Part shown: positions 8,925 through 49,058 of the stretch, piece after piece
Position numbering within the stretch: position 1 is the stretch's first letter
Layout: every line of letters begins with the position of its first letter
Virus record (IMG/VR): IMGVR_UViG_3300033485_000022
Coordinates: 1 to 49,058 of that record
DNA length: 49,058 bases
From: a virus
Lineage: Duplodnaviria > Caudoviricetes
Strand: one strand, 5' to 3'
Program-made: the position numbers and the translations under genes
The notes under the pieces: model-generated
Seen by the model: only the letters and a program-made list of their open reading frames with translations
What the model was told of the DNA's origin: nothing
Database searches by the model: none

Positions 8925-9998
8925 TTACAATCCTGCAATACGGCGAAGTTCGGCGTCGGAGAGTTTCGATACGTCGTTCGGGTCGGCGGCTACTGTCCGC
9001 GGAGCCACACTCTGCGCAATCGGACTCGCGGACTTCCGGGCAACCGCCAGCGTAGGAATATGTCGTCCCATGATCTGCTCGCGGTAGACCCGCTCCTGCT
9101 CGATCAGGGAACTAACATAGGGTTTCAACTCATAGTACCGGCGAACTTCCTCCGGGGTTGCATCTTGGAACAAATCCTCGTTGCCCTCATAACCGAGCCC
9201 GGAGTATTTGCTATTGTCCCTGTACTCCGGCTTGAGGACTTTCAACCGCTCCGGGGACGTGGATTTCCAAAACAGACTCCCGCTCGTCTTGGCCGGGGCC
9301 ATGACGTACTGATCCATCTCCCGCTCGAACGCCTGCCGCACCGGGACGACCTCCGCCAATGCCTGCTTGGGGGATAGGTCCTTGGCCTTGAGCATCGACG
9401 CCGGCACATCTTTCCCTACTGCCTTGTATTGTAGTGACATTGCCTCGGAGGGGTCGAGTTTGCCGCTGTCGGCGAGGCTCTGGTACAGTTGAACCTCCCG
9501 CTGTTGGAGGACCATGTTCATCGCGGCGGTACTCTTGGCCTGCTGCTCGGCGGCGTCAAGAGCCTCCATGTCACCGCGAATCTTCGCTTGGAGGTCGAGC
9601 TTCTTTTTCCGGTAGGTCGTCTCCAAGTCCTTCACCCGCTGCTGCTTGGCGGCGGCGTCCAGATCGGAATTGTTGACAGCCTCAACATCGAGCATGGCCT
9701 TTTGATAGGCGAGGTCGATGTCGGGGTCAATGGACTTCTGCAATGCCTCCCGCTTGGTCTTGAACTGACCGAGGACCGTATCGAGGGCGGTCTTGCTGTC
9801 GGCGGTGAGGATGTCGAGCGGGTTGCCGAGGGTCTGTGCCGTGGGCTGCGACGGCGCGGGGGCGATCTCCACCCACGGCTGCGAGCCCGTGCGCATTTCC
9901 GCGAGGTTCCGCTGCACCGTCGCGTTCTGCCGCTCGATCATGGTCCGATCTTCGGGGTTCTCGGCTTCATTCAAACTGACAAAAGGTAGTCCGGGCAT
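8925..9998 (-). CDS. Probable internal virion (ejection) protein
   Basis: AGGAG RBS before the ATG at 9998; helical; C-terminal DVSKLSDAEL motif; position. Confidence 0.55.
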   Translation of the reverse strand: MPGLPFVSLNEAENPEDRTMIERQNATVQRNLAEMRTGSQPWVEIAPAPSQPTAQTLGNPLDILTADSKTALDTVLGQFKTKREALQKSIDPDIDLAYQKAMLDVEAVNNSDLDAAAKQQRVKDLETTYRKKKLDLQAKIRGDMEALDAAEQQAKSTAAMNMVLQQREVQLYQSLADSGKLDPSEAMSLQYKAVGKDVPASMLKAKDLSPKQALAEVVPVRQAFEREMDQYVMAPAKTSGSLFWKSTSPERLKVLKPEYRDNSKYSGLGYEGNEDLFQDATPEEVRRYYELKPYVSSLIEQERVYREQIMGRHIPTLAVARKSASPIAQSVAPRTVAADPNDVSKLSDAELRRIAGL

Positions 9999-10008
9999 TG
10001 CTTGTCTC

Positions 10009-10977
10009 CTATGAATCGGTGTAACCCGTGTAGAGTCCATTAACAAAAATCAAAGTTCGCGTCCCGCCGCCTACCCTTGCAACGGCAATGCTGGCTGTAA
10101 CCCCGTCATCATCGGTGAGCACCCGCATCCAGCCCGCCCGCGTAAGTGTGGCACTGCCGCTCAACGTAAATCCACCCGACGCGGCAAGTTCCGCAACTGT
10201 GGCAACGGTTAGCGTAGCCGTACCGCCCAGAGTAAACCCGCCCGATGCCGCCAATTCCGCCACTTCCGCCGCCGTCAATGTAGCCGTGCCACTCAGGGTA
10301 AATCCACCGGAGGCGGCGAGTTCTGCCGGCACCCCGGTCAACATATCCTCGTGGTTTTCAATCAGGCCGGAAGTAGAAGGAGTAGCGGGCTGCTGCCGAG
10401 CAGAGCAGGCGTATAGATAACGAAAGTCGTTTTGCTCTCCGGCACTACAATCACGAGTCAGGGTGTCTACAAGAGTAAATCCGGCCTCATCGTTATAGTT
10501 TCCGGTGCAGATGTAGACGGTATACTGCCCCGTACCATTCGCCCCTCCATTGTCGTCACGGTAGATGTCTAAATAATACTTGGTCTCCAAGGACAGATTA
10601 ACGGAGAAATCCTGATTGGTGGTGACACCATTCTCTACCAACCGAAGAAAAATGAGCGGCACACCCCCCGAACTCTCAAAATAGAACACCGCCTGATAGT
10701 CACCACTGGCACCCTCAATCGTAGACGGGGCACTGACCGCGTTGGTGAGTAGCCAGAAATAGAGGAACGAAGAATTTTCAGCACCGCCCGCCGCTGGCGT
10801 GGTGAACTGGCACCGCCAATGCAGATCACCAGAGAAGTACCCTGCCGTAAAGTCCTTGTAGACAGCGGCTACTGGCGTGGACTCGTCCATGTTGGTCACG
10901 GTGATCGCGGCTGCGGCTACCGTCAATACGCCATCAGGGTCCGATTCAGTGTAGGTAGTGTAGTTTTGAACAGCCAT
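10009..10977 (-). CDS. Tail fibre/appendage protein with three tandem AELAASGGFTLSGTATLT repeats
   Basis: GAGG RBS before ATG 10977; beta-rich N-terminal domain; 22-aa repeats near the C-terminus. Confidence 0.6.
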   Translation of the reverse strand: MAVQNYTTYTESDPDGVLTVAAAAITVTNMDESTPVAAVYKDFTAGYFSGDLHWRCQFTTPAAGGAENSSFLYFWLLTNAVSAPSTIEGASGDYQAVFYFESSGGVPLIFLRLVENGVTTNQDFSVNLSLETKYYLDIYRDDNGGANGTGQYTVYICTGNYNDEAGFTLVDTLTRDCSAGEQNDFRYLYACSARQQPATPSTSGLIENHEDMLTGVPAELAASGGFTLSGTATLTAAEVAELAASGGFTLGGTATLTVATVAELAASGGFTLSGSATLTRAGWMRVLTDDDGVTASIAVARVGGGTRTLIFVNGLYTGYTDS

Positions 10978-10979
10978 CC

Positions 10980-12053
10980 TTATTCCTCGTACCGAGAATA
11001 GAATCTCTTGGTGTCCGTCTGATAGACCAAATCGCCTTCTTCGGCATCGGCCGCCGAACGCTCCTGTCCATCTGCTACGCGAATAATTCGTCCGTACCGT
11101 GACCACACGGTTAAGGTCGCCGTCCCGCTCAACACAAGACCGGAAGCAGTGGACATATCCACGTACTCCGCCAATGAAAGACGACGAAATGCATCGTCAT
11201 TGTGCCCCGGACTCAGCCAACCCCCACAGAAGTAGATCGCTCCGTCGAACACGCACGATGCCATCTCTCCGTTGGGTGATATGACATTCGACGCTACGCT
11301 CCATGTATTTTGCACCAGGTCCAAAACCTGCACGTCTCCCGTGAAGTCATAGGCCCCATCGACCGCCCCACCGATCATATACAACTTGTCCCCGACGACA
11401 TCTATCTCTTTGTAGCAGGCGGCAACCGGGCAATCGGCCAGACTGGAAAAGCTGTTGAGAGCCGGGTCATACAACAGCACTTGCCGAGTCGCCCGGAGGT
11501 CATTAGGATACCCACCCATGTCGCCGGTGCCGCTGACGAGGACAATCTTGTCACCATAGGGAGCGGCGAAATCTCCAAGGGCCACGGGCGAGAACCAACT
11601 GCGGCTTTCCCAAGAATCAGTACCCGGATTGTACACGTCGATGTAGGATGCAAACGTGTGACCAGGATTCGTCAACCCACCAAAGATGTAGATTTTCCCG
11701 CCGACCACTGCGCCGCCCATGTCCTCGCGGGCGTGAGGCATGTCGGCCTTCTGCGTCCATGAATCTTGCGACGGGTCATACTCATAGGTCTCGTCTGATT
11801 TCACGCCGAGGTCGCTGCGGTATCCGCCGATCAAATAGAGTTTCCCGCCGACCGCTTTCCACACTGGACTCTGCCCAGAAATCGGGGCGTCGGCCTTGCG
11901 GGTCCAATGGCCGGTCGTCGGGTCGTAGGCGTAGAGCCGATTCATCTCCACGCCCTCAGACCCCCCGCATACGGCGTACAAAATCCCGCCGCACTCCTCG
12001 AATCCGTGTTGGCCGAGTGGAATCGGCAGCGATTCTAATGTAGTGACATCCAC
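10980..12053 (-). CDS. Kelch-repeat beta-propeller protein
   Basis: About six GG-Y/W repeats (LYAVCGG, LYLIGG, IYIFGG, LYMIGG, IYFCGG with YDP..W). Confidence 0.9.
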   Translation of the reverse strand: MDVTTLESLPIPLGQHGFEECGGILYAVCGGSEGVEMNRLYAYDPTTGHWTRKADAPISGQSPVWKAVGGKLYLIGGYRSDLGVKSDETYEYDPSQDSWTQKADMPHAREDMGGAVVGGKIYIFGGLTNPGHTFASYIDVYNPGTDSWESRSWFSPVALGDFAAPYGDKIVLVSGTGDMGGYPNDLRATRQVLLYDPALNSFSSLADCPVAACYKEIDVVGDKLYMIGGAVDGAYDFTGDVQVLDLVQNTWSVASNVISPNGEMASCVFDGAIYFCGGWLSPGHNDDAFRRLSLAEYVDMSTASGLVLSGTATLTVWSRYGRIIRVADGQERSAADAEEGDLVYQTDTKRFYSRYEE

Positions 12054-26659: not shown

Positions 26660-27187
26660 TTACACTCCGATTCGCATATTGTCCCCGAACAACCGGAGAC
26701 TCCGCACCTTGCCGAGATCGGTGAGGTACACCTGCTCAATCTTGAGCCCCCACCCGCTCGCCGCTTCGGCCACACCGCGGCGGAGTTCTTTCTTCACCGC
26801 CTCGATGTCGCCGCACTCCGACAGATTGCGGGTCGAGATGTATTCCAAGATCACGCCGAGGGCGAGCGTGCTGAAAGCCTTGTCCACATCCTGCACGGCG
26901 AACAGGGCCTTCTCGATGTCCACGATGCGGTATCGAATGGTCCCCGATACCACGAGGCCATGTCCATCTTTAGTCGTCACGGTCTGCGGAGGAAGGTCCA
27001 CTACCTGCGTCACCACGTCCATGCGGACGATGTACTGCACCACCGGCCAGACGAAATACCACCCCGGCCCGATGATCTTGTAGCGTTTGCCCCCGGTGAT
27101 CCGGGCACCCTGTTCGGTCGGCTCCACGAGGATGATGGAGGGGAGCAAAGCGAGGATTTTATCGAATAGGCGTTCAAGCCACTGCAT
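26660..27187 (-). CDS. SPFH/Band 7 domain protein
   Basis: VEPTEQG..IGPGWYFVWP..DLPPQTVTTKDG..RYRIVD..WGLKIEQV. Confidence 0.88.
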   Translation of the reverse strand: MQWLERLFDKILALLPSIILVEPTEQGARITGGKRYKIIGPGWYFVWPVVQYIVRMDVVTQVVDLPPQTVTTKDGHGLVVSGTIRYRIVDIEKALFAVQDVDKAFSTLALGVILEYISTRNLSECGDIEAVKKELRRGVAEAASGWGLKIEQVYLTDLGKVRSLRLFGDNMRIGV

Positions 27188-27375
27188 CAATACACCCGCG
27201 CCTTGTCCAGCGTGCGCCCGGTCTCACTCAGCACGTAAATCTCGCTACCACTCGGCAATTCTACGCATCGGCCATCGACCTCAATCACAGGAGGCGTAGA
27301 ATTGCCGCGCCGAACCTGCACGTCCTTAGCGTCGAAATACCGATCCCCGAAATCTGTCACCACTTTCACTACCAT
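27187..27375 (-). CDS. Hypothetical protein
   Basis: IYVLSETGRT motif; AGGAG RBS. Confidence 0.55.
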   Translation of the reverse strand: MVVKVVTDFGDRYFDAKDVQVRRGNSTPPVIEVDGRCVELPSGSEIYVLSETGRTLDKARVY

Positions 27376-27944: not shown

Positions 27945-28104
27945 GAATCACCCTCCCAGAACGGATAATCTTGTGAGCATGTACGAGTTCTGCGTACCTC
28001 TGCTCAAACATCTCCTTGGTGATGAGCCCACGCGCTAGTTCCCAGCGAAGCTCCTCCTCCTCGCGGCTGATCTGCGGCGGCCGGCGTGCGCTGCCCTTGC
28101 CCAT
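27916..28104 (-). CDS. Hypothetical protein
   Basis: MGKGSARRP..SREE..RW N-terminus; TGATG overlap. Confidence 0.55.
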   Translation of the reverse strand: MGKGSARRPPQISREEEELRWELARGLITKEMFEQRYAELVHAHKIIRSGRVIRGGQDLQNK

Positions 28105-28391
28105 CACTTCTCCCCCTTTGGGTACACCACCTGAATCTCATCCTCCTTGAGCACGAGAGCCGGTTTGCCCTCGATCTCCAAGTCGAATTTGCCTGTGTGC
28201 ATGATCCGCACATAAGTTGTCATCGGGATCAGCACATGATCCCCCACGTCGATGCACTGGACGCCGGGACCGATGGCGATGACCTCGGCGAGCGGGTTGT
28301 TCTCCTGCGCCGAATCTGGAAGCAAGATGCCTTTACGCTCGGACTGTTTCTGACCTTGGATGACGACGAGACTGTTCCCCAGACACTTCAT
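28104..28391 (-). CDS. groES: Co-chaperonin GroES-like protein
   Basis: 95 aa; GILLPDSAQE mobile loop, AEVIAIGPG, VGDHV, LVLKEDEI. Confidence 0.85.
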   Translation of the reverse strand: MKCLGNSLVVIQGQKQSERKGILLPDSAQENNPLAEVIAIGPGVQCIDVGDHVLIPMTTYVRIMHTGKFDLEIEGKPALVLKEDEIQVVYPKGEK

Positions 28392-28414
28392 CAGTTCCCC
28401 TTTCTCTGTGGGCC

Positions 28415-29203
28415 TCATAGCCCGGTCTTGTTGAACCCATCCTCCTCGACCCCCAGATTCTCCGGCTCCTGTTTATCAGGCACCGGCTCGAATCGGCTGA
28501 GGGCGAACCAATTTTGCACCGTATCGAGCCGGTCCTTGAACACGGCGACTGGCACACTGTAGTTGATCCCGGCTCCCGGCACCCCGGCGACAAGGACGCC
28601 AATGACCTCGCCGCGGGTATTGAACACAGGACCCCCGGAGTTACCGGGGTTTGCCGAAGCGTCGGACTGGAAAGTCACCCGCCAGCCATACCCATACCCG
28701 CCCGGCTTGGTGCCATCGAGGTCCCGCTGCATCGCGCTGAGGATACCGAGGCTGACACTATTGAAATTGGCCTTGCCGAGCGGCGAGCCCATGATAAAAA
28801 GTGGGTCCCCGACACGCATGGTGGTCAGATCAGCGAGCTTGGCCGCGGGGAGCCGCACGCCGGCAGGCAGATCGAGGAGCAGGAACGCAACGTCGTTGTC
28901 CTTGTCCTCAAGGGCGTACTTCACGGGGTAACTCTTGCCGTCATCGAGGGTGACCATATAAGTCCCCGGCATGTGATCGGTGACATGTTTGGCGGTGAAT
29001 ACGATGCCGTCCTCGCTGACGATACACCCGGAGCCCTCGCACTCGCCCTGCTTCTCAACGTGGACGACAGTGGAGCGGACCTGTTCGACCTGCGGGGCGA
29101 TGCCCTGGGGGCCGGCATGGTAGTCGGGGATGCTGGCCCCAAGAACGAGGGCGATGACACAGATTACGACGAGTGGTGCGTACTGGCGCATGGTGTCCTC
29201 CAT
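28415..29203 (-). CDS. Trypsin-like serine protease (S1C/HtrA-like, no PDZ domain), exported
   Basis: GSG..IVFTAKHV, DVAFL, ANPGNSGGPVFN..GEVIGV; N-terminal hydrophobic segment. Confidence 0.92.
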   Translation of the reverse strand: MEDTMRQYAPLVVICVIALVLGASIPDYHAGPQGIAPQVEQVRSTVVHVEKQGECEGSGCIVSEDGIVFTAKHVTDHMPGTYMVTLDDGKSYPVKYALEDKDNDVAFLLLDLPAGVRLPAAKLADLTTMRVGDPLFIMGSPLGKANFNSVSLGILSAMQRDLDGTKPGGYGYGWRVTFQSDASANPGNSGGPVFNTRGEVIGVLVAGVPGAGINYSVPVAVFKDRLDTVQNWFALSRFEPVPDKQEPENLGVEEDGFNKTGL

Positions 29204-29220
29204 GTGCGGCTGTGCCGCGG

Positions 29221-29562
29221 TTACTGGACCAGTTCAACCAAAAATCCGAGACCGTTGTTCACGTCGGTCGTGTAGTGCAGAGTCGTGTACCCGGCCGGAA
29301 TCTGAATCTCGATGCTGTGGTACAGCGGACAGACCCAGCGCACGTTGCCGTCGGTCGCCACGGTTGCCAGGCCGAATCGGAATCCGCCGGTGATGTAGGC
29401 GGTGAATCGGTAGCGGGACCCGGCCGTGACCGTGGCCGTGGTCTCCGTACCCGCTGTGGCCTGTGTGAGCTTGAGGGCGGTCTGCGTTACTTTCGGTTGA
29501 CTGGACTCCGGGGACGGTGAACTGCGAAACCCGGTATTGTCAACACCAATCGCCGTCGTCAT
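29221..29562 (-). CDS. Hypothetical beta-rich protein
   Basis: GGAGG RBS; ATGA overlap. Confidence 0.55.
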   Translation of the reverse strand: MTTAIGVDNTGFRSSPSPESSQPKVTQTALKLTQATAGTETTATVTAGSRYRFTAYITGGFRFGLATVATDGNVRWVCPLYHSIEIQIPAGYTTLHYTTDVNNGLGFLVELVQ

Positions 29563-29747
29563 ACTGCCTCCTGTACAAAAAGACTACATGCGGCATCGTC
29601 TTTATCTGTGATCGACCGTTTCCAGAACGCCGGGTTTTCGACATCGTGCGTCCGGTCAATGACAAACACCGGAGGATTGGCGAAACATTGCCCGGTGTCT
29701 ATGTTTGGGGACTTGTCAAAATAGATACAATCTTTGCACTGAGACAT
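29559..29747 (-). CDS. Small Cys-rich protein
   Basis: CKDC..GQC..PP..W..C pattern common in phage small proteins. Confidence 0.6.
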   Translation of the reverse strand: MSQCKDCIYFDKSPNIDTGQCFANPPVFVIDRTHDVENPAFWKRSITDKDDAACSLFVQEAV

Positions 29748-29802
29748 GGTTTCACCGTCTTAGGGCATTTTTTTTTCTCCCCTGTGACCGGATTGCGCGC
29801 TC

Positions 29803-29875
29803 AGACCCCCCATACCTTACCGGGTTAATAGAAAGAGGGGGGCTCCCCTCACTAACCCGGTATGGTATGGGGGGT
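29803..29875. repeat. Long imperfect palindrome made of two copies (A, B) of the CCCCCCATACC(A/T)TACCGGGTTA motif
   Basis: 29803-29827 pairs with 29853-29875; inner GAGGGG/CCCCTC stem. Confidence 0.9.
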
Positions 29876-29970
29876 GCAGGGGTTGATTCCGAGGCTTGGG
29901 GCTGGATAATCTGCTACATCTGTAGTAGGTGTGTGCGGATCGTAGCGGTTATACCATGTAGGTGGTGTGG

Positions 29971-30171
29971 TTATCGGGGTTGTATGAACTGTAGCATTTC
30001 ACGCTGGGGGGTGCCGGGGAATGAGGTCTCCACGGCCCCGGTCTGGGTATCGAGGCGGAATACGATGTTGCCGCTGTCGGTGACGGCGATCTGGTAGCGG
30101 CTGGGTGCGACAGCCCCGGCGGCGAGGGCGAGGGCGATGCCTACGGCGATTCCGATGACGAGATTACGCAT
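29971..30171 (-). CDS. Small exported/membrane protein
   Basis: Hydrophobic N-terminus; RYQI..VFRLDTQTG. Confidence 0.6.
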   Translation of the reverse strand: MRNLVIGIAVGIALALAAGAVAPSRYQIAVTDSGNIVFRLDTQTGAVETSFPGTPQREMLQFIQPR

Positions 30172-30492
30172 GTTGGGTCCTTTCTTTTGTCAGAAATATC
30201 GACCGATGTTTGTGACTTCCTTGAGCGTAAGTTCGTCCACACTTGCGCGTAAGTGAGGACGTTTGTACACGAAAGGTTTACATCTGCGCAAGTTGGCGTA
30301 CTATAAGTCGAGTTTCCGGCGCGGGAATAGTGGACGACTTATATCCAGAATTGAATTTTGGGGTCGCGGGGGAGGTCCAGGTACGAGGGGTCCCAGGCGG
30401 ATAAGGCAAGGGCAAGGGTACCACCGTGGGGGTCGCGCGTGCGTGCACGCTCCTATTCCAGACAGTGACACGCAATTAAATCCACAATCCAC

Positions 30493-30521
30493 TTGACGCA
30501 CAATACTCTATTGTGTATACT
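30493..30521 (+). promoter_or_regulatory. Sigma70-type early promoter P1 with palindromic spacer
   Basis: TTGACG-17 nt-TATACT; the spacer is CACAATA-ctc-TATTGTG. Confidence 0.85.
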
Positions 30522-30567
30522 CTGCATAGCTGGCAAGCAAACCAAAACCTTAATAAAGGGTGAAACC

Positions 30568-30903
30568 ATGAAAACCATTGCAACAATCTGGGAAGTCTGG
30601 ACGTATGACGTTTGGGGCAATGCCGAAGATGGATGGGAAGTCAACGACTGTTCGTGCATCGACCGACACTGCGAACTGGAATTGCTTGTTGAAACCTACA
30701 ACTACGGTACGCCCCGTGCGTTTGACGGTGCAAGCCCCACCGATGAGGATATCAAAGACGTACTAGGAATTAGGGCCGATGTCGCTATCGAAACCGACGG
30801 TGACGACTTGGCTATCTACGTCACGGCGGCCGATGACGGCTATCCTCTCGGCGAATTGCACTGCATTTCGCACAAGTCTTTGTCGCCTATCGAGGCCCAG
30901 TAG
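30568..30903 (+). CDS. Acidic early protein
   Basis: AGGGTGA RBS; YDVWGNAEDGWEVND motif; D/E-rich. Confidence 0.75.
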   Translation: MKTIATIWEVWTYDVWGNAEDGWEVNDCSCIDRHCELELLVETYNYGTPRAFDGASPTDEDIKDVLGIRADVAIETDGDDLAIYVTAADDGYPLGELHCISHKSLSPIEAQ

Positions 30904-30965
30904 CCACACTACGGCCGCACCATGAGGCGGCCGTAAGTGGCAATTGTGCCAATAGAGGGTGAAAT

Positions 30966-31073
30966 ATGGCTATCTACGTCAACAAATTGCACGCATGGTT
31001 ATTGTTCACCGGTCCGTATGTGTATCTCTGCCGAGATTTGCAAGGGTACTATCCGATGAGGAAATTGGCGTGA
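30966..31073 (+). CDS. Small early peptide (35 aa, not in the ORF track)
   Basis: GAGGGTGA RBS directly before the ATG. Confidence 0.5.
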   Translation: MAIYVNKLHAWLLFTGPYVYLCRDLQGYYPMRKLA

Positions 31074-31137
31074 GCATACGTGCAATCGCATGGGCAACTA
31101 TTATCGCAAGTATCATTCTATGGTAGGGGATAAAACT

Positions 31138-31323
31138 ATGCTGTATGCAATCAAGATCACTACAGGCGCATGGCGCATGCTGCGCAATAAGCGCGACGCA
31201 ATTCGATGGGCAAAACGTCTTGGCAAAGGTGCCGAAGTATGGGCGCATGCCGACATCCCAGAAGTAAACGTATGGGACTGGCCGACGTTCCGTATTAGCG
31301 CGAAACGTATCTATCCATTGTGA
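31138..31323 (+). CDS. Hypothetical early protein
   Basis: AGGGGA RBS before ATG 31138. Confidence 0.55.
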   Translation: MLYAIKITTGAWRMLRNKRDAIRWAKRLGKGAEVWAHADIPEVNVWDWPTFRISAKRIYPL

Positions 31324-31335
31324 GAGGGTGACAGT

Positions 31336-31806
31336 ATGCTTATCAGTGACACGCAACAACTCCGCGGCGCAAAAACGCAATACGGTAGTGACATCCAGAC
31401 GTATGACGATGGTTTCGGTCCGCTATGGATCATGCGGGACAGTATGGACATTATGGGCATTGTCCGCGCGCAGACATGGGAAGATGCCTACTCTATCTGT
31501 GAAGATGAGTTTTTCCCAGAGGCGGACGATACCATAGAGGAACTCATCGCGGAATATGGGCATAAGCGCGAGCATGTCCGCCGGCCCGATGGTACGTGGG
31601 ACACTATCGAAACTCCCGACGCTGACGCATGGTATGAAAACGAACTATTTCAAGAGGCATACGGGTTTCGCCCCAATGGTCCCAATGTGCGCGACAAGCG
31701 CGGACATGGTATCTACGCAAAAGACTTGAACGGTGAATATCTTGACGCATTGGGACCGGCATTGTTGGCGCAGTTGGGTATTGTACTGGACATCGTATCG
31801 GGGTGA
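31336..31806 (+). CDS. Acidic early protein
   Basis: GAGAGGGTGA RBS; 156-aa ORF. Confidence 0.7.
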   Translation: MLISDTQQLRGAKTQYGSDIQTYDDGFGPLWIMRDSMDIMGIVRAQTWEDAYSICEDEFFPEADDTIEELIAEYGHKREHVRRPDGTWDTIETPDADAWYENELFQEAYGFRPNGPNVRDKRGHGIYAKDLNGEYLDALGPALLAQLGIVLDIVSG

Positions 31807-31828
31807 TTGTGTCTATACGGGAGGCAAT

Positions 31829-31969
31829 ATGTCCGCAAACGAGTTTAACTATGAATGTGTATCGCGTACCATCGACCCGGCGATTGCACTGGAAAATGAA
31901 CACATTCGCGAGGCATTAGCGGCGCGAAACGATGACTACGTGCGGGAAGTGTTAGACACGGAGTTTTGA
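31829..31969 (+). CDS. Small acidic early protein
   Basis: GGAGG RBS; IDPAIALENE..REVLDTEF. Confidence 0.55.
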   Translation: MSANEFNYECVSRTIDPAIALENEHIREALAARNDDYVREVLDTEF

Positions 31970-32390
31970 TCGTGGGGGCGGTTCTGGCCGAAAAGTTATC
32001 CACAAGTTATCCACAATCGCCCCCGGAAAAATTCGCCCCCTAACTACAATCTGGAAAACCCCAACTATGAACAGCGCAGTTAGGGAGCAAAAACGGCCTT
32101 GACACTATCAATAACCCCTATTCTCCCTAACCTCCCTAACTAAAAGAGAAAAAAGAATAGAGTATAGAACAGTATGATAGTCATCACAAGAGAGAAAGAG
32201 AGAGACAAACCCTATGAGCGCGGCACCCTCTCCATAGTGAAACTGTTTGCGCGCGCTGTTTTGGTGGCTACGGGTTTTTGAGCTAATAATTTCAAAAAAC
32301 CCACGGCATACCATCAAAAACGGCGTTTCTAAGTAGGGGTGGCAAGCCACTTTTAGACCAGCAAGTTAGGGGGGGCAACGTCCAATAACA
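31970..32390. promoter_or_regulatory. Putative replication origin region
   Basis: Non-coding; tandem TTATCCACA at 31996-32004 and 32007-32015; five CCCTAAC/GTTAGGG copies; A-rich purine tract 32142-32210. Confidence 0.6.
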
Positions 32391-32773
32391 TAACCATGAG
32401 ACAGCTATACAAAAACAACGATGACTTTTTGTTGGCCGATGACGGGCAAACACCCCCCGCGGGATATATTCCCGTCGATTATTTACCGCCGGCCGCCGAT
32501 ACCATCCAATATTCATACCACTGGCTACGGGGTGACGGTTGCCATAAATCGACCCGATACGAACTCCTCAGAGAATCCGGCCCATTTCGAGTAGGCGGAC
32601 AACGCCAATACGTTCGCAAGCCCCGCAACCGCAACCGTCGGCGACTGCAGGCGCAACTCTACCGGGCGCGGCGACATTTGACTTGGTATGAAAAACTCCC
32701 GCTATGGCCGCCCGTTGTAGTTGCCCGTATAGCTGCGCTGCGAAAAAAGATCAACAAAATAAATACAGAACTC

Positions 32774-32802
32774 TTGACACCGGACCCACAATAGCGTATA
32801 CT
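32774..32802 (+). promoter_or_regulatory. Sigma70-type early promoter P2
   Basis: TTGACA-17 nt-TATACT; the spacer contains the CACAATA half-site. Confidence 0.88.
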
Positions 32803-32869
32803 ATAAACATGCTGGCAAGCAACCACGGCCCCCGATAACCGGGCGGCCACAATCTGAGAGGGTGAAGCA

Positions 32870-33556
32870 ATGTGCAGATACATCAGTTTCTTTCATCATC
32901 CTCAAACGCATGATGTTCTCGTGAGTGACTTGAACAGCCACGGGAACACCGAACGTGACTTGAAACTTGACCCCGATGGCCCATACCGCGAGGGCCATTA
33001 TCTGCCCGATGGTGAGATCGAATGTCGGCTTGCCGATGAGGATATAAAGGCGGGATGCACAACCGCCGACTGCGAAGCAGCCATACGGGCTAAATGGCCC
33101 ACGTTTAACGATTTCGAGGAGTGGGCGGACAGCATAGTAAACAATGAGGACACTATTTGTGAGCGTGAATACAATCAATTTCTCGAAAGTTGGGACGACT
33201 GGGGCGCGGACGATTTCCGCAAAGCCATTGCCCGCGCATTGGGCGCGGACGACGACGCCGACTTGGAAACCGCACTTGATGACGTGCCCGATAATGACTT
33301 GCGGAAACTCTATATGGATAACGCGGACAACCCATACTATTCCGACGGCGGCGGTTGTTACATACCGGATATCGAGCAAGCCGCAGCTAGCGTCACGCTT
33401 GACGACGTTCTGCCCGACTACGGCGCGGCCCTTGAGCGCGAAGTGTTGAGCAAGTCCCTACTGACCGGCACCCCGGACTTGTTCGGCGACGACATGCGGT
33501 GGTATTGGAACAATGAACCGCTTGAACTTGACACGGCCCGCGAACTTTTGGCCTAA
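32870..33556 (+). CDS. Highly acidic early protein
   Basis: GAGAGGGTGA RBS; 228 aa, strongly D/E-rich. Confidence 0.75.
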   Translation: MCRYISFFHHPQTHDVLVSDLNSHGNTERDLKLDPDGPYREGHYLPDGEIECRLADEDIKAGCTTADCEAAIRAKWPTFNDFEEWADSIVNNEDTICEREYNQFLESWDDWGADDFRKAIARALGADDDADLETALDDVPDNDLRKLYMDNADNPYYSDGGGCYIPDIEQAAASVTLDDVLPDYGAALEREVLSKSLLTGTPDLFGDDMRWYWNNEPLELDTARELLA

Positions 33557-33627
33557 CCCCCGGCCCCACCGCCGGGGACGGACCCCCGGCGCAACGGCCG
33601 GCGATTATGCCGATAGAGGGTGACAGT

Positions 33628-34194
33628 ATGAAACCGCTAAAACGTATCCGGTATTACACCATGAACAGTTGGAATTTGAGCACGGCCCCGGCATACAACC
33701 TGAAAATCCACCACGTCATCGACCGGGACCTACAGAACAAAGTTTTTGACCTTCTGGAAGTCGATGACTACCGCGCCGAAATAGGCGCACTTATCGCCGA
33801 CTTCGGCCGGGCGCACGGTTATGAGTGGCAAGCCGGTTTCAACGGGCGCAGCGGCGGGTATCTCGTGCTCTACCGGGGCGGCCAGAAGCCCAGCGGCCAT
33901 AAAAGCCACTGTACCCAATGCGGACAGCGGAATTTTCAGGCCGTGCCGGATGGTGAAACCGGCAAGTGCGGCCGTTGCGGGGCGGCGGCCCGCGTCAACG
34001 ATACCACCGTGCATATGGAAACGTTCAGCTACCCCGGCAAGGGCATCGAAGATAATGAAGTCCCCGGCCCCGTGTTGCGGGCATTTCGCCGGCTTGCGGT
34101 TTCCATTGTCAAGACCACGGAGGACATGGCGCGGACGTGCGAAGTATATGACGAGGAGTACACCGAAACTCATACCCGCAAGGCTATTCGATAG
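33628..34194 (+). CDS. Early protein with inserted zinc finger
   Basis: GAGGGTGA RBS; GFNGRSGGYLVLY; CTQC...CGRC. Confidence 0.7.
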   Translation: MKPLKRIRYYTMNSWNLSTAPAYNLKIHHVIDRDLQNKVFDLLEVDDYRAEIGALIADFGRAHGYEWQAGFNGRSGGYLVLYRGGQKPSGHKSHCTQCGQRNFQAVPDGETGKCGRCGAAARVNDTTVHMETFSYPGKGIEDNEVPGPVLRAFRRLAVSIVKTTEDMARTCEVYDEEYTETHTRKAIR

Positions 34195-34290
34195 CCCCCA
34201 CTGGCCCGGCCCGGCGGGGACCACCCGGACCCGGCCTGTAGTGACTATCAGCAACCGCCCGGATACTGGGCCAATATGAGAGGGTGAACC

Positions 34291-34473
34291 ATGCACAACG
34301 ACACAGAGCGCGCCCAATGGATCGACAACGACGAGGGCCTTTACAACTGGTGGCGCGGTAGCCGCCAGAGCAAGCGGGATTTCATCCGGGCCAACCGGGC
34401 GGACATCGACGCCGCGATTGACAACGTAGTCGGCGGACACAAGCCGGCGCACTATCTCGCCTATGGAGCGTGA
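34291..34473 (+). CDS. Small early protein
   Basis: GAGAGGGTGA RBS; WIDNDEGLYNWW. Confidence 0.7.
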   Translation: MHNDTERAQWIDNDEGLYNWWRGSRQSKRDFIRANRADIDAAIDNVVGGHKPAHYLAYGA

Positions 34474-34476
34474 ACC

Positions 34477-35103
34477 ATGTATATCCAGATAACCACCCGC
34501 TGTAATATGCACTGTGAGCATTGCTGTTATTCGTGCGGCAAACGGGGCCACGATATGAGCGCGGAGACCTACGCGGCGGCCTTAGCCTACGGTGATGAAT
34601 ACCTGAGCATTGGCGGCGGCGAACCCACGTTACACCCGCTATTCTGGCAATTTCTGGGACAAGCTATCGCTGCAGCGGAGACCGTTTGGCTTGCCACGAA
34701 CGGAAGCCAGACGGAAATTGCCCTTGCTCTCGCGAAGCTGGCCCGCAAGGGGGTAATCGGCTGCGCTCTGTCCCAAGACTGTTACCATGATGAGATTGAC
34801 GATAGGGTAGTCGATGCGTTCACGCGCGAGCCTCGCCCGTATGACTACATTGGCCGCGGCGATGCAGCGGACGGCCGCGAGATACGCGACGTGACCGGCA
34901 AGGAAATCAAGGCGGGCCGATGTCGGCATGGGTCCGATGACTGCCCGTGTAGTGACCTTATCGTCAAGCCCGATGGGCGCGTGTTCGCGTGCGGGTGTAA
35001 GCGCGCCCCGTGCTTCGGCAACATCACCGGTACGGTAACTATTCCCGACAACTGGGAAGTCGGTGAATGTTACCGGCAACAATCCGCGGCCCAGGCTGCA
35101 TAA
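34477..35103 (+). CDS. Radical SAM protein with Cys-rich SPASM/twitch-like C-terminus
   Basis: CNMHCEHC (CxxxCxxC), GGGEPTLHP, ATNG, C..LIVKPDGRVFAC..FGNI. Confidence 0.9.
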   Translation: MYIQITTRCNMHCEHCCYSCGKRGHDMSAETYAAALAYGDEYLSIGGGEPTLHPLFWQFLGQAIAAAETVWLATNGSQTEIALALAKLARKGVIGCALSQDCYHDEIDDRVVDAFTREPRPYDYIGRGDAADGREIRDVTGKEIKAGRCRHGSDDCPCSDLIVKPDGRVFACGCKRAPCFGNITGTVTIPDNWEVGECYRQQSAAQAA

Positions 35104-35113
35104 AGGTGAACCC

Positions 35114-35353
35114 ATGCAACTTGTTATTGTAGGTGATTACAACCGCTGGGGGTATTCGATTTTTGAGGCTGATACTGGCCGCGAAATTTATACCTCTGGC
35201 AATAGCCAGTATGATAGCGGTGCGAGCTTGGACCCCGGCACGCCGGGGGCTCTACCACTGCGAACGATCCGAAGCCATTGCATTGGTACCGCCCGCGAGA
35301 TCGCCGCCGAGTGCGGTGGGGTCTATGGGGGTGTTGAGAGGGGTGAAGAATGA
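35114..35353 (+). CDS. Hypothetical early protein
   Basis: AGGTGA RBS before ATG 35114. Confidence 0.6.
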   Translation: MQLVIVGDYNRWGYSIFEADTGREIYTSGNSQYDSGASLDPGTPGALPLRTIRSHCIGTAREIAAECGGVYGGVERGEE

Positions 35354-35580
35354 CCATTTACGAGCAATTGAAAGCCGCCGGCGTCCCGCTGGACCACCAC
35401 GAGAGCGACCTATACGCACGGGTAGAACCCAAGAGCCGTATGATTGTAGCGGCCAACTGCCCCAGTGCGAAAGTGTTCCGGTCCCAGATCGACGGCGAAC
35501 TTTGGTATGATATCCCGTTCGCCTATGATCCGTGGTGGGCTGAGCGGGGGTTAAAGTCGATACCACTGAATAACCGATAG
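35350..35580 (+). CDS. Hypothetical early protein
   Basis: GAGGGGTGA RBS; DHHESDLY...WYDIPFAY. Confidence 0.7.
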   Translation: MTIYEQLKAAGVPLDHHESDLYARVEPKSRMIVAANCPSAKVFRSQIDGELWYDIPFAYDPWWAERGLKSIPLNNR

Positions 35581-35625
35581 ATATTACTGCCCGGCGGGCG
35601 CGCATCTTGCCCTCACTGGGGCAAC

Positions 35626-35653
35626 GGTTTCGCCCTCATTGCTTGCCAGCATG
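35626..35653 (+). ncRNA. Candidate antisense element complementary to early leaders and RBS motif
   Basis: GGTTTCGCCCTCA-TTGCTTGCCAGCATG; the last 15 nt are the exact reverse complement of 32808-32822. Confidence 0.45.
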
Positions 35654-35704
35654 AGACACGTCACCGGCCGCCCGCTGGGTATTACCAGAGAGGAGACAGA
35701 GACT

Positions 35705-35866
35705 ATGACCGTAAGAGACGCCCTTACGCAGTTGATTGAAGAACTCGAAAAGCCTTGCATAACACGCGGGGATGCAATTCGCCGGGCGGGAATTGTTCAG
35801 TTAGCACGGACAATTCTTGGCTACCCGTCCCGCGAATCAATGGAGGGGGCCGATCATGCGGAGTAA
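35705..35866 (+). CDS. Hypothetical protein
   Basis: GAGGAG RBS before ATG 35705. Confidence 0.5.
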   Translation: MTVRDALTQLIEELEKPCITRGDAIRRAGIVQLARTILGYPSRESMEGADHAE

Positions 35867-36098
35867 AGAGGAACAGCGTGACATCGTGCCGAGCCAGAAG
35901 GCTCGCGACATCACCGATGTCCTGATTGCCCGCTACGGCTTGTTGTGGGCGGTCGAGATCGGCCAGCACATTCAGGCCCAGCTTGGCGCGGCGGTCGAGC
36001 AACAAAAGCGGCTGCACCCGGAAGATTGGGTACAACCGGCACAACCTGAACCGACACCGACGAAAAAAACCTTAACCATGCCCCGAATTGAGGCGTAG
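35856..36098 (+). CDS. Hypothetical protein
   Basis: GGAGG RBS before ATG 35856. Confidence 0.55.
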   Translation: MRSKEEQRDIVPSQKARDITDVLIARYGLLWAVEIGQHIQAQLGAAVEQQKRLHPEDWVQPAQPEPTPTKKTLTMPRIEA

Positions 36099-36127
36099 AC
36101 CCCCCATACCATACCGGGTTAGTGAGG
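36097..36127 (+). repeat. Third copy (C) of the CCCCCCATACCATACCGGGTTA motif
   Basis: 36099-36127 is the exact reverse complement of 29847-29875 (29 bp); 36097-36121 matches 29803-29827 at 24 of 25 bases. Confidence 0.92.
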
Positions 36128-36136
36128 AGAACAGTG

Positions 36137-36640
36137 ATGCAGAACCAACATCCCGAAGATCGTGCCGCAGACCGAGTGACAGAGGCATTTTTGCGGCAAT
36201 GCCGCAAGGAGGGCCGGATTACCGACAGGGAATTGGCGGAAATCAGTTTGGATCGTGGCGGTATCGGGTGCTCAAAGCCGACAACCGTGCTACGGATTGA
36301 GAGCTTCATAGCGCGGATTCACGAGGAAACGGGTCTACCAGAGCCCGACATTCACCGCATCCTCGCGCTGCACCTGAAATCGGTGCATCTCACGGTACGG
36401 CATTTGGAGTTGTATCTGAACTATCCAGCATGGACAGAACAGGAGTTGGCAGACCTGTTTGGGATCACTCAAGATGGAGTCTCGGATGCTCTTGCTGCCG
36501 TTCGCCGCGCGTGGCCCGGCCTTCGATTCGATGTTTCCCACGAGGGCGATTATGGTGTGCCGGCCTTGGAGAACATGAAGCGCATCGAGCACTACGACTG
36601 TTCCGGCCGCCTCGATAGCGAGAAAGTGGAGTGGTTTTGA
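36137..36640 (+). CDS. HTH transcription regulator (sigma70 region 4-like)
   Basis: LTVRHLELY...WTEQELADLFGITQDGVSDAL; GAGGAG RBS. Confidence 0.65.
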   Translation: MQNQHPEDRAADRVTEAFLRQCRKEGRITDRELAEISLDRGGIGCSKPTTVLRIESFIARIHEETGLPEPDIHRILALHLKSVHLTVRHLELYLNYPAWTEQELADLFGITQDGVSDALAAVRRAWPGLRFDVSHEGDYGVPALENMKRIEHYDCSGRLDSEKVEWF

Positions 36641-36804
36641 TGGAAAGCTCATACTGGGACCCGCATCTTGAATCTCGGCGATGCCTATACTGCAACGAGA
36701 TTTTCGACCCGAAAACTCCTTGGCACATGTATTGCTCTGAGGAGTGTGAGAGAAATGCAGAGAATGAGCGGCCTTCTGCCACTGCAATAGGTCCCTACGA
36801 CTAA
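36640..36804 (+). CDS. Small Zn-ribbon protein (54 aa, not in the ORF track)
   Basis: RRCLYCNEIF...YCSEEC; TGATG overlap. Confidence 0.6.
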   Translation: MESSYWDPHLESRRCLYCNEIFDPKTPWHMYCSEECERNAENERPSATAIGPYD

Positions 36805-36888
36805 CCCAGCGGGCCGCCCGGCTACGGCTATGGCCAACACACGTAAAGCGCACGGACGCGGCCCGCTTTTATCTCTTTGGAGGAAACC

Positions 36889-37161
36889 ATGAATCCCAAG
36901 ATCGAACAGTGCAAAGCCGTCATCGCCAAGTTGCAAGAGGAACTCAAGCGGTTGGAGGACGAGCCAACGCCCCGGCATGGGGACATAGTGGCGTACCACG
37001 GTGAACGACGCATTATTGTGATTGTTGAGGATGGCACGCCCCGCGCCTACGATGTCAACGGCCATATGGTGGCCGGTGGATCGTCTGACGGCGTGGCCTA
37101 TTGCTACACGAGCGGTTGCTACACCGTCCTCGGCAACGTGTTCGACTGGGAGGCGAAGTGA
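36889..37161 (+). CDS. Hypothetical protein
   Basis: GGAGG RBS; N-terminal coiled coil, C-terminal VLGNVF. Confidence 0.65.
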   Translation: MNPKIEQCKAVIAKLQEELKRLEDEPTPRHGDIVAYHGERRIIVIVEDGTPRAYDVNGHMVAGGSSDGVAYCYTSGCYTVLGNVFDWEAK

Positions 37162-37757
37162 TGGAGGTCAAGGACACCAACCCGAAGGACTCCATCGGCG
37201 TCAAGAAAGTCCCGCTGCATCTTGTCCCGTGCGAAGTCCTGTTCGAGATCGGCCTTGCCATGCTTGAGGGTGCCCGCAAGTACGGTGCCCACAACTACCG
37301 GGCCACAGGCGTCCGGGCATCGGTGTATTACGATGCTGCCATGCGGCACATCATGGCGTGGTGGGAAGGCGAGGACATCGACTCCGATAGCGGGCTGCCT
37401 CATATCATCAAGGCTATCGCGTCTTTGGCGGTCCTGCGGGATGGGCAACACGTCGGCAACTGGGTAGATGACCGGCCCATTCGGCTCGCACGCGGGGCGG
37501 ACGTGAAGGCCCTGAATGAGCTTGCGGCCAAGATCATCGAACGATATCCGGCGTGTAAGGCCCCGTTCATTGATGTAGGGCGAGCCCCCGCTGCCGAGAA
37601 GCCCAAGACCTGTGTGGGCTGTGTTCACTTTGACCCCACCGCGGAAAACCCGCGTATGCAGTGCGATACTCGCGAGCGGTATTGTAGTGGTTCGGGTGAT
37701 TCTGTGTTGTTGTGCTCAGCATACCGTGCCGCATATACCCCCAAGGAGCCCGCATGA
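37161..37757 (+). CDS. dATP/dGTP diphosphohydrolase-like protein (DUF5664-type) with Cys-rich tail
   Basis: TNPKD..G.KK..LHLVP..GARKYG..NYR..YYDAAMRH..WWEGED.D.DSGLPH. Confidence 0.85.
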   Translation: MEVKDTNPKDSIGVKKVPLHLVPCEVLFEIGLAMLEGARKYGAHNYRATGVRASVYYDAAMRHIMAWWEGEDIDSDSGLPHIIKAIASLAVLRDGQHVGNWVDDRPIRLARGADVKALNELAAKIIERYPACKAPFIDVGRAPAAEKPKTCVGCVHFDPTAENPRMQCDTRERYCSGSGDSVLLCSAYRAAYTPKEPA

Positions 37758-38146
37758 GAGCCTACCTATCCCATCCGATCCGCGGGGCCAAGGGTGCCGC
37801 CGCGACCCGCGAGGACATGGAGGCCAACAACCGCCGGGCCATCGAGTTCGCCGCCCAAGTGCGGGCGGAGTTTCCCGGCCTCGATCTGTACGTGCCGGCG
37901 GAGCATGATGAATTTGTGATCGAGGCATACGAAATGGCGTATCTGGCCGAGTCAGACATCTTGGCGATAGATGTTCGACTTGTGCAAAAGCGGGATATGC
38001 TGATTACATATGCTCCCGAATCTCACATCTCCAATGGAATGCGCATAGAGATCGAGGCCGCTCAAGCCGCACGAAAACCCATCGCGTTCACGACCGGCGG
38101 CATGGACCCGATTCACGGCGTATTGGAGAGCTTTTTGCATGGCTAA
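37754..38146 (+). CDS. Nucleoside 2-deoxyribosyltransferase-like fold protein
   Basis: AYLSHPIRG...YVPAEHD...D..L...D...SNGMRIEIEAA. Confidence 0.65.
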   Translation: MRAYLSHPIRGAKGAAATREDMEANNRRAIEFAAQVRAEFPGLDLYVPAEHDEFVIEAYEMAYLAESDILAIDVRLVQKRDMLITYAPESHISNGMRIEIEAAQAARKPIAFTTGGMDPIHGVLESFLHG

Positions 38147-47338: not shown

Positions 47339-47407
47339 TACCCCGGCGTATCATGGGGCACGGAGGCCCCGCAGAGGGGATAGCGGTGTAGCTGAGTTCA
47401 TAAAGGC

Positions 47408-49038
47408 ATGTATGCCATGACGGATTTTAACGACCTCCTACTTACATTCCAATCCAACATGTACCCTTGCATGGTGGACGCCCTCGCCGCCGACCTCGGC
47501 GTGACATCGGACGCCATTCGGCGGCTCGGCGTGGGCTACTACCCTAAAGAGGGCTGTTGGATTTTCGCGGAGCGTGACGGCGACGGCAAAGTCACCGGCC
47601 TGCTCCGGCGATATCAAGACGGCAAGAAATACACATGGGAAGGCAGTAAACGAGGGCTCTACTATGAATGTCTGGGTGTACGACAAAAAGGCAAAGACCT
47701 ACCGGAGTACCGGCCCCAATTCGTTCGAGTGGGAGACGCTGGGGTGGAGTGCCCGATTTGCCACAGGGAGCGGGATGGCTGTCTCGTGTCTGATGAGGAC
47801 ACAGAGGACCCCGCTTGCGTCATTTGCGTCCGAACCCCCGACGGTGCAGAGCGTAGCCTTGAAACTGGGGCTGGGTACTTCCATCGTCGTCATGCCCAGC
47901 CTGATTATCGAGGAGGAGCCGTATCTGTACTGCCTGTATCGGATCAGCCGGTGGTTGTCACTGAGGGCGCGTCTGACTGCCTGGCTGCGATGTCGATGGG
48001 CTACGTGGCGGTCGGCCGGGCGAACGCGGACGCGACCCATAAGGGACTCGCGGGGCTACTACAGGGGCGCGAGGTCATCCTTGTCGGCGACCGCGACCCT
48101 CACGGCGTGGGACAACGCGGATTAGAGGCAGCATTTCAGACCCTTCGCCCCATAGTCCAATCCATAGTCAAAGTCCTCCCGCCAGAGGGCAAGGGCAAGG
48201 ACCTCCGGGCCTGGCAACCAACCCGCGCGGAGTTCGAGGCCCACGTAGCCAAGGCCGGCATCACCACCGATGACGGCTCGGTCCTGGCCGATACCGCTCC
48301 GCTCGCCTTGGTCAAGAACTGGATTCAGGTCATGCACATGCGCGACGGCACACCGCTGATCCGCCGGGTCCACGGCGACTACTATATTTGGGAGGGTCCC
48401 ACCTATCGAAAAGTCAGTCAGGAGGAAATTCGTGGCGAGTGGTATGCGTTCTTCACCGACAAGCAGGCCAAGGTCCCGACCGGCAAGGACATCAAAATAC
48501 AAACCATACGACCCGACCGCAAATTCTGTGCTGACCTTCACGATGCGGCGAGTGCGCACTGTAACGTCCGCATCGAGGATGGTGTTCACGAGCCATTCCT
48601 GATCGCGGCCCGTGCTCCGATGGACCTTGCCCGCGCGGTGGTGTTTCAGAACGGCATCCTGTACGTCACTGATGGCCGATTGTCGCCGCTCACCCCAGAT
48701 GTGTTTCTAACGAGCACCCTGCCCTACGACTACAACCCCCGATATCAGTGTGAGAAATGGGAGTGGTTCGTGAGGGACATCTTCAACGGAGACCCCGAAT
48801 GTATCGCCCTACTTCAAGAGTGGTTCGGGTACAACCTGATCGCGTCCAACCACATGCAGAGCATGATGTTCCTGTTCGGTGTTCCTGGGTCGGGCAAAAG
48901 TACAACTGCCGGTGTCTTACAGGCCCTTCTTGGGCCTGCGCGGTGTTGTGGCGCAAGTACCGACAACTTCAAAGGTCTGTTCGGTAAAGAAACCCTCCTA
49001 AACAAGTACGCCGCGATCATGTCCGAGTCCCGCGATAC
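47408..49038 (+). CDS. Primase-helicase, N-terminal part (Zn finger, TOPRIM, SF3 helicase Walker A); ~760 aa in total when joined to 1-778
   Basis: Manual translation: CPIC..C..C, VVVTEGASD, LVGDRD, KDLR, FQNG, LQEWFGY, FLFGVPGSGKST; absent from the ORF track because it runs off the window end. Confidence 0.88.
48913..49038. repeat. Terminal direct repeat, right copy
   Basis: Identical to 1-126. Confidence 0.95.
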
Positions 49039-49039
49039 T

Positions 49040-49058
49040 AATGATACGGTGACCACCG
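49040..49058 (+). other. Illumina P5 adapter-like remnant (artefact)
   Basis: AATGATACGGTGACCACCG matches the P5 sequence AATGATACGGCGACCACCG at 18 of 19 bases and begins where the terminal repeat breaks off. Confidence 0.85.

Follow-up and report, generated by a model that had tools for sequence, protein, structure and literature searches.

Organization of the early region

The window, by which we mean the whole stretch of DNA analysed here, is a complete virus record of 49,058 bases from a tailed phage. A PHROGs scan of 55 ORFs recognises family-A polymerase, primase, helicase, terminase, portal and capsid genes; integrase, repressor, antirepressor and partition families were found neither among these 55 ORFs nor among 23 + 45 ORFs compared with Pfam, and no tRNA or tmRNA was detected. 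The terminase of the closest cultured phage is at most 29% identical to that of the window. The primase gene seemingly spans both ends of the record (47396-49058 and 1-778), and the record is therefore a circular permutation. Unusual cargo is carried at five loci (1854-3833, 26660-27190, 28104-28418, 28415-29203 and 10980-12053), comprising a RecG-like helicase with a wedge domain, an SPFH protein, a GroES-like co-chaperonin, a trypsin-like protease and a Kelch-repeat protein.

Small genes of unrecognised function are clustered at 30568-35580 and are read from P1 and P2, the two top-scoring sigma-70-like promoters in the region, both near consensus. Family and similarity searches returned no informative match for the first gene behind either promoter. 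The framework of the region is as follows:

30493-30521, plus strand: early promoter P1, sigma-70-like, TTGACG-17-TATACT (consensus scan 10/12; predicted +1 at 30528)
32774-32802, plus strand: early promoter P2, TTGACA-17-TATACT (consensus scan 11/12; predicted +1 at 32809)
35350-35580, plus strand: last early-type ORF, 76 aa, no family, with its stop 9 nt before the element described below
35705-35866, plus strand: ORF after the element, 53 aa, not common to the post-element ORFs of relatives

Two further features of the region are recorded here as separate observations. At 31996-32015, two tandem perfect copies of TTATCCACA, which we take to be a DnaA-box word, lie between GC-rich arms and precede a purine-skewed, AT-rich tract that separates the P1 block from P2; site and tract together are a possible origin. 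In the early regions of the three relatives a similar skewed tract is present, but no such tandem pair was seen. Further out, a 23-nt near-perfect inverted repeat at 29805-29875 has a second copy 6.2 kb off at 36097-36130 (32 nt inverted, 25 nt direct), just ahead of the gene at 36137, and a comparable repeat pair occupies both equivalent places in the relative G006.

Complementarity between the early leaders and a downstream tract

The word GCTGGCAAGCAA occurs three times in 49 kb, at 30529 and 32811 on the plus strand and at 35639 on the minus strand, and no further copy was found there at one mismatch. From dinucleotide composition, 0.005 copies would be expected by chance, and 7e-5 of the 15-mer at 32808-32822. 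Both sense copies begin 1-3 nt past the predicted +1 of P1 or P2, whereas the inverted copy lies in the tract behind the last early-type ORF. The features of the two leaders are:

30529-30540, plus strand: P1 leader box (target block A), complementary to the element over 12 Watson-Crick pairs
30557-30567, plus strand: RBS of the first P1 gene (target block B; gene start 30568), 11 bp, one of them G.U
32809-32822, plus strand: P2 leader box (target block A), complementary to the element over 14 Watson-Crick pairs
32827-32848, plus strand: predicted P2 spacer hairpin, left as a loop between blocks A and B if both are paired
32858-32868, plus strand: RBS of the first P2 gene (target block B; gene start 32870), 11 bp, two of them G.U

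Among 16,346 sequence windows on both strands, with the leaders' own opposite strands set aside, the tract is the top partner of either leader (-23.5 against -19.9 kcal/mol for the next site, and -25.2 against -21.1 kcal/mol). Of 3000 random 16-mers, only 0.27% find a downstream Watson-Crick match of at least 12, and none a match of at least 14. The P1 leader box has identical letters in the independent run X2; X1, which may be where this DNA comes from and is the one run of four that covers the tract, shows no variant over it.

An earlier, sequence-only reading of this DNA had described a 15-nt reverse complement of 32808-32822 and a 12-nt match to the P1 leader at 30529-30540. We find both, and all coordinates check, but base 32808 is the predicted -1 of P2, and the RNA helix with this transcript would therefore comprise 14 bp. 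The proposed antiparallel order of the two blocks relative to the 5' leader and the RBS is supported, as is the pairing, G.U wobbles included, of the 5' part of the tract with the RBS of each leader.

Fold and anatomy of the element

The feature is larger than was originally noted. An 11-bp closing stem encloses both guide segments, giving an element of ~90 nt (35590-35679) with a predicted closed three-stem RNA fold (z -3.7 on the plus strand versus -2.0 on the minus strand). Its parts are:

35590-35600, plus strand: closing stem, 5' arm, the first 10 nt invariant in 4/4 genomes
35607-35624, plus strand: second stem-loop, with a CCC/GGG core kept in 4/4 genomes and a variable loop and flanks
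35626-35637, plus strand: anti-RBS segment, partly masked in the third arm, co-varying with the first-gene RBS in G001
35639-35652, plus strand: anti-leader segment forming the third-arm tip, with an unpaired loop UGCC; its sequence changes together with the leader in both G006 and L238
35651-35665, plus strand: third arm, 3' strand, masking both guide segments in the free fold (fold and accessibility calculations)
35669-35679, plus strand: closing stem, 3' arm, with neither a U-run nor a conserved CCA behind it

The P2 leader box itself is predicted to fold into a small 5' hairpin, and its loop, GGCA, is complementary to the UGCC loop of the element. YUNR is a motif of antisense recognition loops; each anti-leader contains such a word, to which we give little weight, as it is likely enough by chance. 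Plain co-folding of the partners opens the closing stem, because loop-loop pairing cannot be modelled in this way, and the method was therefore set aside.

The TTGCCC/GGGCAA hairpin at 35607-35624, which had been taken to hold a second anti-RBS copy, is real, but it does not follow the RBS change in G001 and its CCC/GGG core is kept whatever the RBS; it is best read as a structural arm. Across four genomes, 12 of the 13 core pairs never vary, one varies on one side and none shows a two-sided change, so the core is conserved in sequence and its RNA structure is predicted rather than proven. The invariance of the stem sequence hints at a protein-bound stem.

The element lies on the same strand as, and downstream of, both promoters. 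A promoter-like site of its own, weak and on the plus strand, is present only in the window, and three of the four genomes have none. No U-tail or processing signal behind the stem is shared by the four, and a terminator-like site at the element was found only in G006, on the 3' arm, not in the window, G001 or L238.

Two smaller observations concern its surroundings and its fold. The word CCGATAR stands 9-13 nt 5' of the closing stem in three of the four genomes (window 35572-35580, G006 and L238) and includes the upstream stop codon in two of these. In the G006 element (L106:3424-3461), GAGGC pairs with GCCTC on either side, giving two near-equal folds; according to the fold model, leader binding would pick between them.

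Relatives carry elements matched to their own leaders

Three relatives with terminases 76-84% identical to that of the window (G001, G006 and L238) keep the same closing stem just behind an early-gene stop codon, and a P1-equivalent promoter is present in each. In all four genomes the element stands roughly 10-30 nt 3' of that stop codon. The gene on its other side is common to only one of the six genome pairs (G006 and L238), so the element has no fixed downstream neighbour.

The four genomes have three leader types, and each element is the complement of its own genome's leader. The GCTGGCAAGC type is found in the window and in G001, the closest relative (terminase 84%, polymerase 68% identity), in which the element is 72% identical, lies right behind the early stop codon and has a plus-strand fold z of -6.6. 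The same leader box as in the window stands behind two G001 promoters; the first RBS is TGAGGAGAT rather than AGGGTGAA, and the anti-RBS segment of G001 is altered to match TGAGGAGAT. G006 (terminase 76%) has the leader AGTCGAACGA behind both promoters; its complement was predicted from the leader first and then located inside the same closing stem. In L238 (terminase 77%), a third leader, GTGTCGGCAAA, follows both promoters, and complements of 14 and 12 bases lie inside the same stem. G006 and L238 had been chosen by terminase similarity only. The compensatory changes for which the relatives were searched are thus present at both blocks: the anti-leader changes in step with the leader, and the anti-RBS block co-changes between the window and G001, which have the leader in common but not the RBS.

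The sequence-only reading had left room for two other accounts of the tract, as the relic of an inverted leader cassette or as a third sense leader on the minus strand. In their favour, the minus strand reads as a leader box with an RBS-like word after it, and in the window an ORF of 117 codons on that strand starts within the tract. The best minus-strand promoter, however, scores only 6-7/12 and is misplaced in all four genomes, minus-strand ORFs are not conserved in 4/4, and a relic would not follow three different leaders. With no minus-strand promoter in any of the four, we reject both variants as extremely improbable.

Not every member of the group has the element. It is present in three of the five close relatives with a complete early region (G001, G006 and L238), and was not found in the other two, L237 and G005, nor in the more distant L039 and L043, whose early regions are also full; its absence from L237 and G005 makes it dispensable in the group. 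G002, L091, L094 and L095 were too incomplete to be scored, though L091 has a one-base variant of the window's leader. The four carriers are not resolved as one clade in a terminase tree.

A hairpin word, GGCRATTRTGCC, was noted at 30939 and 33600 of the window, usually after a larger hairpin and directly 5' of an early RBS. It recurs in the four element carriers and in L091 and has no copy in L237, G005, G002, L039 or L043; it may be a processing or stabilising cassette tied to the element system. L039 (3326-3790) has two promoters with another leader design in common (a short 5' word, a hairpin and AACGGATC), for which no antisense partner was found.

Specificity of the pairing

For all eight leader promoters of the four genomes, the element is the best partner in the region (z -4.5 to -6.7), with a margin of 6-11 kcal/mol over the second-best site except for G006 P2, where it is 0.1 kcal/mol. 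In relatives that lack the element, 13 promoters were examined in the same way, and their best sites are scattered. When the interior of the element was shuffled 1000 times, p was at most 0.001 for each of the eight leaders, so that the match of the tract to the leaders holds against shuffled controls, both window leaders included. In rough calculated sums that include opening costs, net binding at block A is -10.6 to -14.1 kcal/mol for cognate pairs versus -4.5 to +8.5 kcal/mol across leader types. The window and G001 cross-react at block A and are separated by block B: with both blocks, again as rough sums, their cognate pairs reach -17.6 to -23.3 kcal/mol versus -7.7 to -14.6 kcal/mol for swapped pairs. 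Of five independent non-Watson-Crick positions within or at the ends of the helices, four are G.U on the plus strand, a weak signal from a hand count (p ~0.2).

The RBS block is more variable. It spans 9-11 bp and co-varies in the window and G001, shrinks to 5-7 bp in L238, where it adds <1 kcal/mol and the leader genes are not first among 18 starts, and is absent in G006. Taken alone, block B in the window is marginal (shuffle p 0.032 and 0.071). Unmasking of the anti-RBS segment by leader binding would be modest (3.2 kcal/mol in the window, <1 in G001 and L238).

It had been suggested that the tract shuts off many early genes through the shared start motif GAGGGTGA. The part of this claim that stands is the predicted targeting of the leader-bearing first genes, which take ranks 1-2 of 51 candidate starts in the window and of 17 in G001. 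Two leader-less early genes in the window come close behind (-19.1 and -18.6 versus -20.2 and -20.1), and there may be weak multi-targeting in this genome. In G001, however, three GAGGGTGA-type starts score just -5.3 to -7.7 against the element, and G006 is without the block. We conclude from the G001 and window rankings that the RBS block tracks the first gene behind a leader and not the GAGGGTGA motif. Being weak in L238 and absent in G006, it also shows that a translation block is not a step shared by the four genomes.

The block that all four genomes have in common covers just +1 to about +14 of the transcript. This is the size of abortive products, and the promoters are near consensus, so the roles might be reversed, the element being the target: a cis sensor refolded by early 5' ends or abortive RNAs that controls read-through or downstream translation. 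In three genomes (the window, G006 and L238) some 7-10 nt separate the stem from the next RBS, the 3' arm of G006 has its terminator-like fold, and a precedent is offered by phi10 of T7, where abortive RNAs of 5-6 nt bind the 5' arm of the intrinsic terminator T-phi (PMC2952870). As in T7, the first bases made from a phage promoter are complementary to a structured downstream element; here, however, the pairing takes 10-14 bp in a loop arm, the anti-leader lies outside the closing stem, and no terminator or U-run is conserved. The other three genomes have no terminator-like site at the element, the anti-RBS segment is a poor match to the RBS behind the element (-11.7 in the window and -5.3 in G001), and the downstream genes differ between genomes. 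In two genomes, moreover, the RBS with which block B co-varies lies 25-60 nt into the leader, past abortive length. We regard such a sensor as rather unlikely.

The pairing begins at +1 to +2 in seven of the eight leaders and at about +5 in G001 P3. Pairing at the 5' end of an RNA can also protect that RNA, so that the repressive sign of the effect is something we infer. If the element capped early 5' ends, in cis or in trans, against 5'-end-dependent decay, this register would be expected; several promoters of element-less relatives (G005, L039) start with a 5' hairpin of their own, and an unrelated phage, L081, has a one-stem version in cis 27 nt behind its leader. Against such protective or activating pairing, the second helix of the window and G001 covers and co-varies with the Shine-Dalgarno, which points to repression, and protection gives no reason for leader divergence among relatives. 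It is in our judgement unlikely.

Finally, the boxes could work in DNA, as protein-binding or recombination sites or as targets of a protein-carried guide RNA directed to promoter DNA. The closing inverted repeat is invariant, as it would be for a protein-bound site or scaffold, the boxes overlap start sites, where repressors bind, and a gene ~450 nt downstream is helix-turn-helix-like (a weak match). A DNA device is nonetheless improbable: the target is split by a ~10-40-nt spacer that the element does not have, the second block is an RBS matched with G.U pairs, no recombinase family appears among the ORFs scanned, and the orientation is the same in all four genomes, with no strand-changing joint seen in the contigs.

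Searches for further members

A strict promoter-plus-leader pattern matched no viral contig. A looser one gave 11 matches: three loci that belong to G001 or to a fragment of that phage, one in L081, and seven others that were judged chance or set aside. The anti-leader-plus-stem pattern was found in one viral contig, G001, and 76 times in metagenomes, where a sense leader follows a promoter only in the window's own record and G001; the remaining 74 were judged chance. Of 47 matches to the closing-stem pattern only G001 and G006 are real. Relatives collected by way of an early gene (15 loci) or by way of the polymerase (12 loci) proved too distant, and a match to GCTGGCAAG in L021 was rejected, as it apparently lies within a gene. 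BLAST of the tract against five terminase relatives returned nothing, not even in G006 despite its element, and such blanks therefore mean little. A covariance model, R1, recovered only its four training members from 67 sources (best other match 27 bits); in 41 records it found only G006 and a 16-bit match in G005, which lies in an ORF without a matching anti-leader and was discarded.

L081, a phage without protein similarity to the window, combines at 9900-10051 on the minus strand a promoter with the leader box of the window. One hairpin follows 27 nt downstream of the box; its tip bears the anti-leader, and the words of its closing stem resemble those of the element (z -5.3). The arrangement, which model R1 misses, may represent a compact version acting in cis.

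The element, a putative RNA known from four members through sequence-level evidence, is real and conserved, with unusually clear guide-target co-variation, and is best read as a variant of phage antisense control.

Comparison with known antisense systems

By analogy, the element is most likely a C4/CI-like antisense RNA made from the early transcript. C4 of P1 and P7 (Rfam RF01695) is a three-stem RNA processed from a longer transcript of the unit that it controls; one of its segments acts on an RBS and another, upstream, gives specificity, with few base changes separating immunity groups (PMC5320573). The element is of about the same size, is predicted to fold into three stems in the window and has, beside the anti-leader, a putative RBS segment that is strong in two of the four genomes; its specificity segment differs between relatives together with the targets, across three leader types. 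By its lack of an Rfam match, of an RNase P signature and of a lysogeny context, and by its downstream position, it is nevertheless outside the C4/CI family.

The RNase P signature at a closing stem includes a 3' CCA, and no CCA stands directly behind the element's stem in any of the four genomes. The stem starts with CCC in all four, unlike that of C4, which starts with GGW at its 5' side as part of the same signature (PMC5320573). Both guide segments of the element are in one arm (a multi-stem fold is predicted in 4/4), and it is located not in an operon leader but 2.8-5.1 kb 3' of its targets, the first bases of transcripts. The ORFs scanned include none of the integrase, repressor, antirepressor or partition families that would indicate a C4-like context, and Rfam, C4 and its relatives included, gave nothing above noise in the window at 29000-38000 or at loci L072, L189 and L075, which cover the elements of two relatives.

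The CI RNA of P4 (seqA/seqC) is likewise processed from the transcript it controls and pairs there, leading to premature termination (PMC4825925, PMC3632133). CI sits in the leader between its targets, whereas the two targets of the element are upstream, in separate leaders 2.8 and 5.1 kb away; the one-stem version of L081 is nearer the P4 layout than the element of the window.

In its proposed timing logic, with an RNA from the far end of the targeted message, the element resembles OppZ. Small RNAs from 3' ends carry the U-tail of an intrinsic terminator, at which Hfq binds; the element differs in having no U-tail and a long closing stem, in serving two promoters and in a specificity that changes between relatives. 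OppZ and CarZ of Vibrio cholerae are 3'-end sRNAs that pair with their own polycistronic message, block translation and trigger Rho termination, in a feedback that for OppZ requires full transcription first; OppZ depends on Hfq and RNase E and binds an internal intergenic site (PMC9438474), whereas the element would bind the 5' end. Further general background is given in PMC2864571, PMC5499578 and PMC8201110. A literature search, which covered few subscription papers, found no prior description of such an element.

Proposed mechanism and significance

Within a conserved frame, the four genomes carry complements to the predicted start sites of their own early transcripts, changed together with three leader types. 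We suggest, from these sequence comparisons, that the element is probably an antisense RNA made from the early transcript, which would clamp and repress new early transcripts and so provide delayed feedback and silencing of kin.

From P2, 2.8 kb away, or from P1, 5.1 kb away, transcription by host RNA polymerase would run on into the element. Given these kilobase-scale distances and the lack of a promoter of its own, bar the weak site in the window, the RNA would appear a minute or two late at a general elongation rate of RNA polymerase. The invariant GC-rich stem, as predicted by folding, would close and stabilise the RNA, whether excised or within a long transcript. The tip loop of the third arm would then make a kissing contact with the small hairpin at the 5' end of a newly made early transcript, and the pairing would extend to 10-14 bp; because a helix of more than one turn in a closed loop needs a free end, the extreme 5' end would be the suitable target. 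In the window and G001, a second helix of 9-11 bp would then cover the Shine-Dalgarno of the first gene, and lost translation of this gene would, by analogy with OppZ and P4 CI, lower the whole operon through polarity or Rho termination. A terminator-like site closes the P1 block in G001, so pairing with the P1 leader of that phage would be in trans.

The early operons would come under delayed negative feedback. The same RNA would also silence a phage that enters later and has this leader, and we propose that leaders have diverged among close relatives for this reason.

More tentatively, a constant RNA scaffold with an exchangeable guide might read nascent early starts as a self tag, timing shut-off and excluding kin. 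An extension of this idea, which we offer as a similarly doubtful possibility, is that leader and guide race towards new specificities, that the invariant stem is a handle for a protein of the host or the phage, and that the scaffold can be re-aimed at whatever transcript start is chosen. Both concern a lineage without recognisable lysogeny genes. The shut-off of early promoters used by the host polymerase in repressor-less phages and the exclusion of close kin are usually credited to proteins; here a small RNA element appears to act via the very start of transcripts. Three leaders with three matching guides on one scaffold amount to a natural compensatory-mutation experiment, and the four elements and eight leaders form an orthogonal set that could be tested in E. 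coli without phage or host. If the proposal is true, the element would be a small 5'-end silencer that can be re-targeted, and would extend C4-like control to a new setting.
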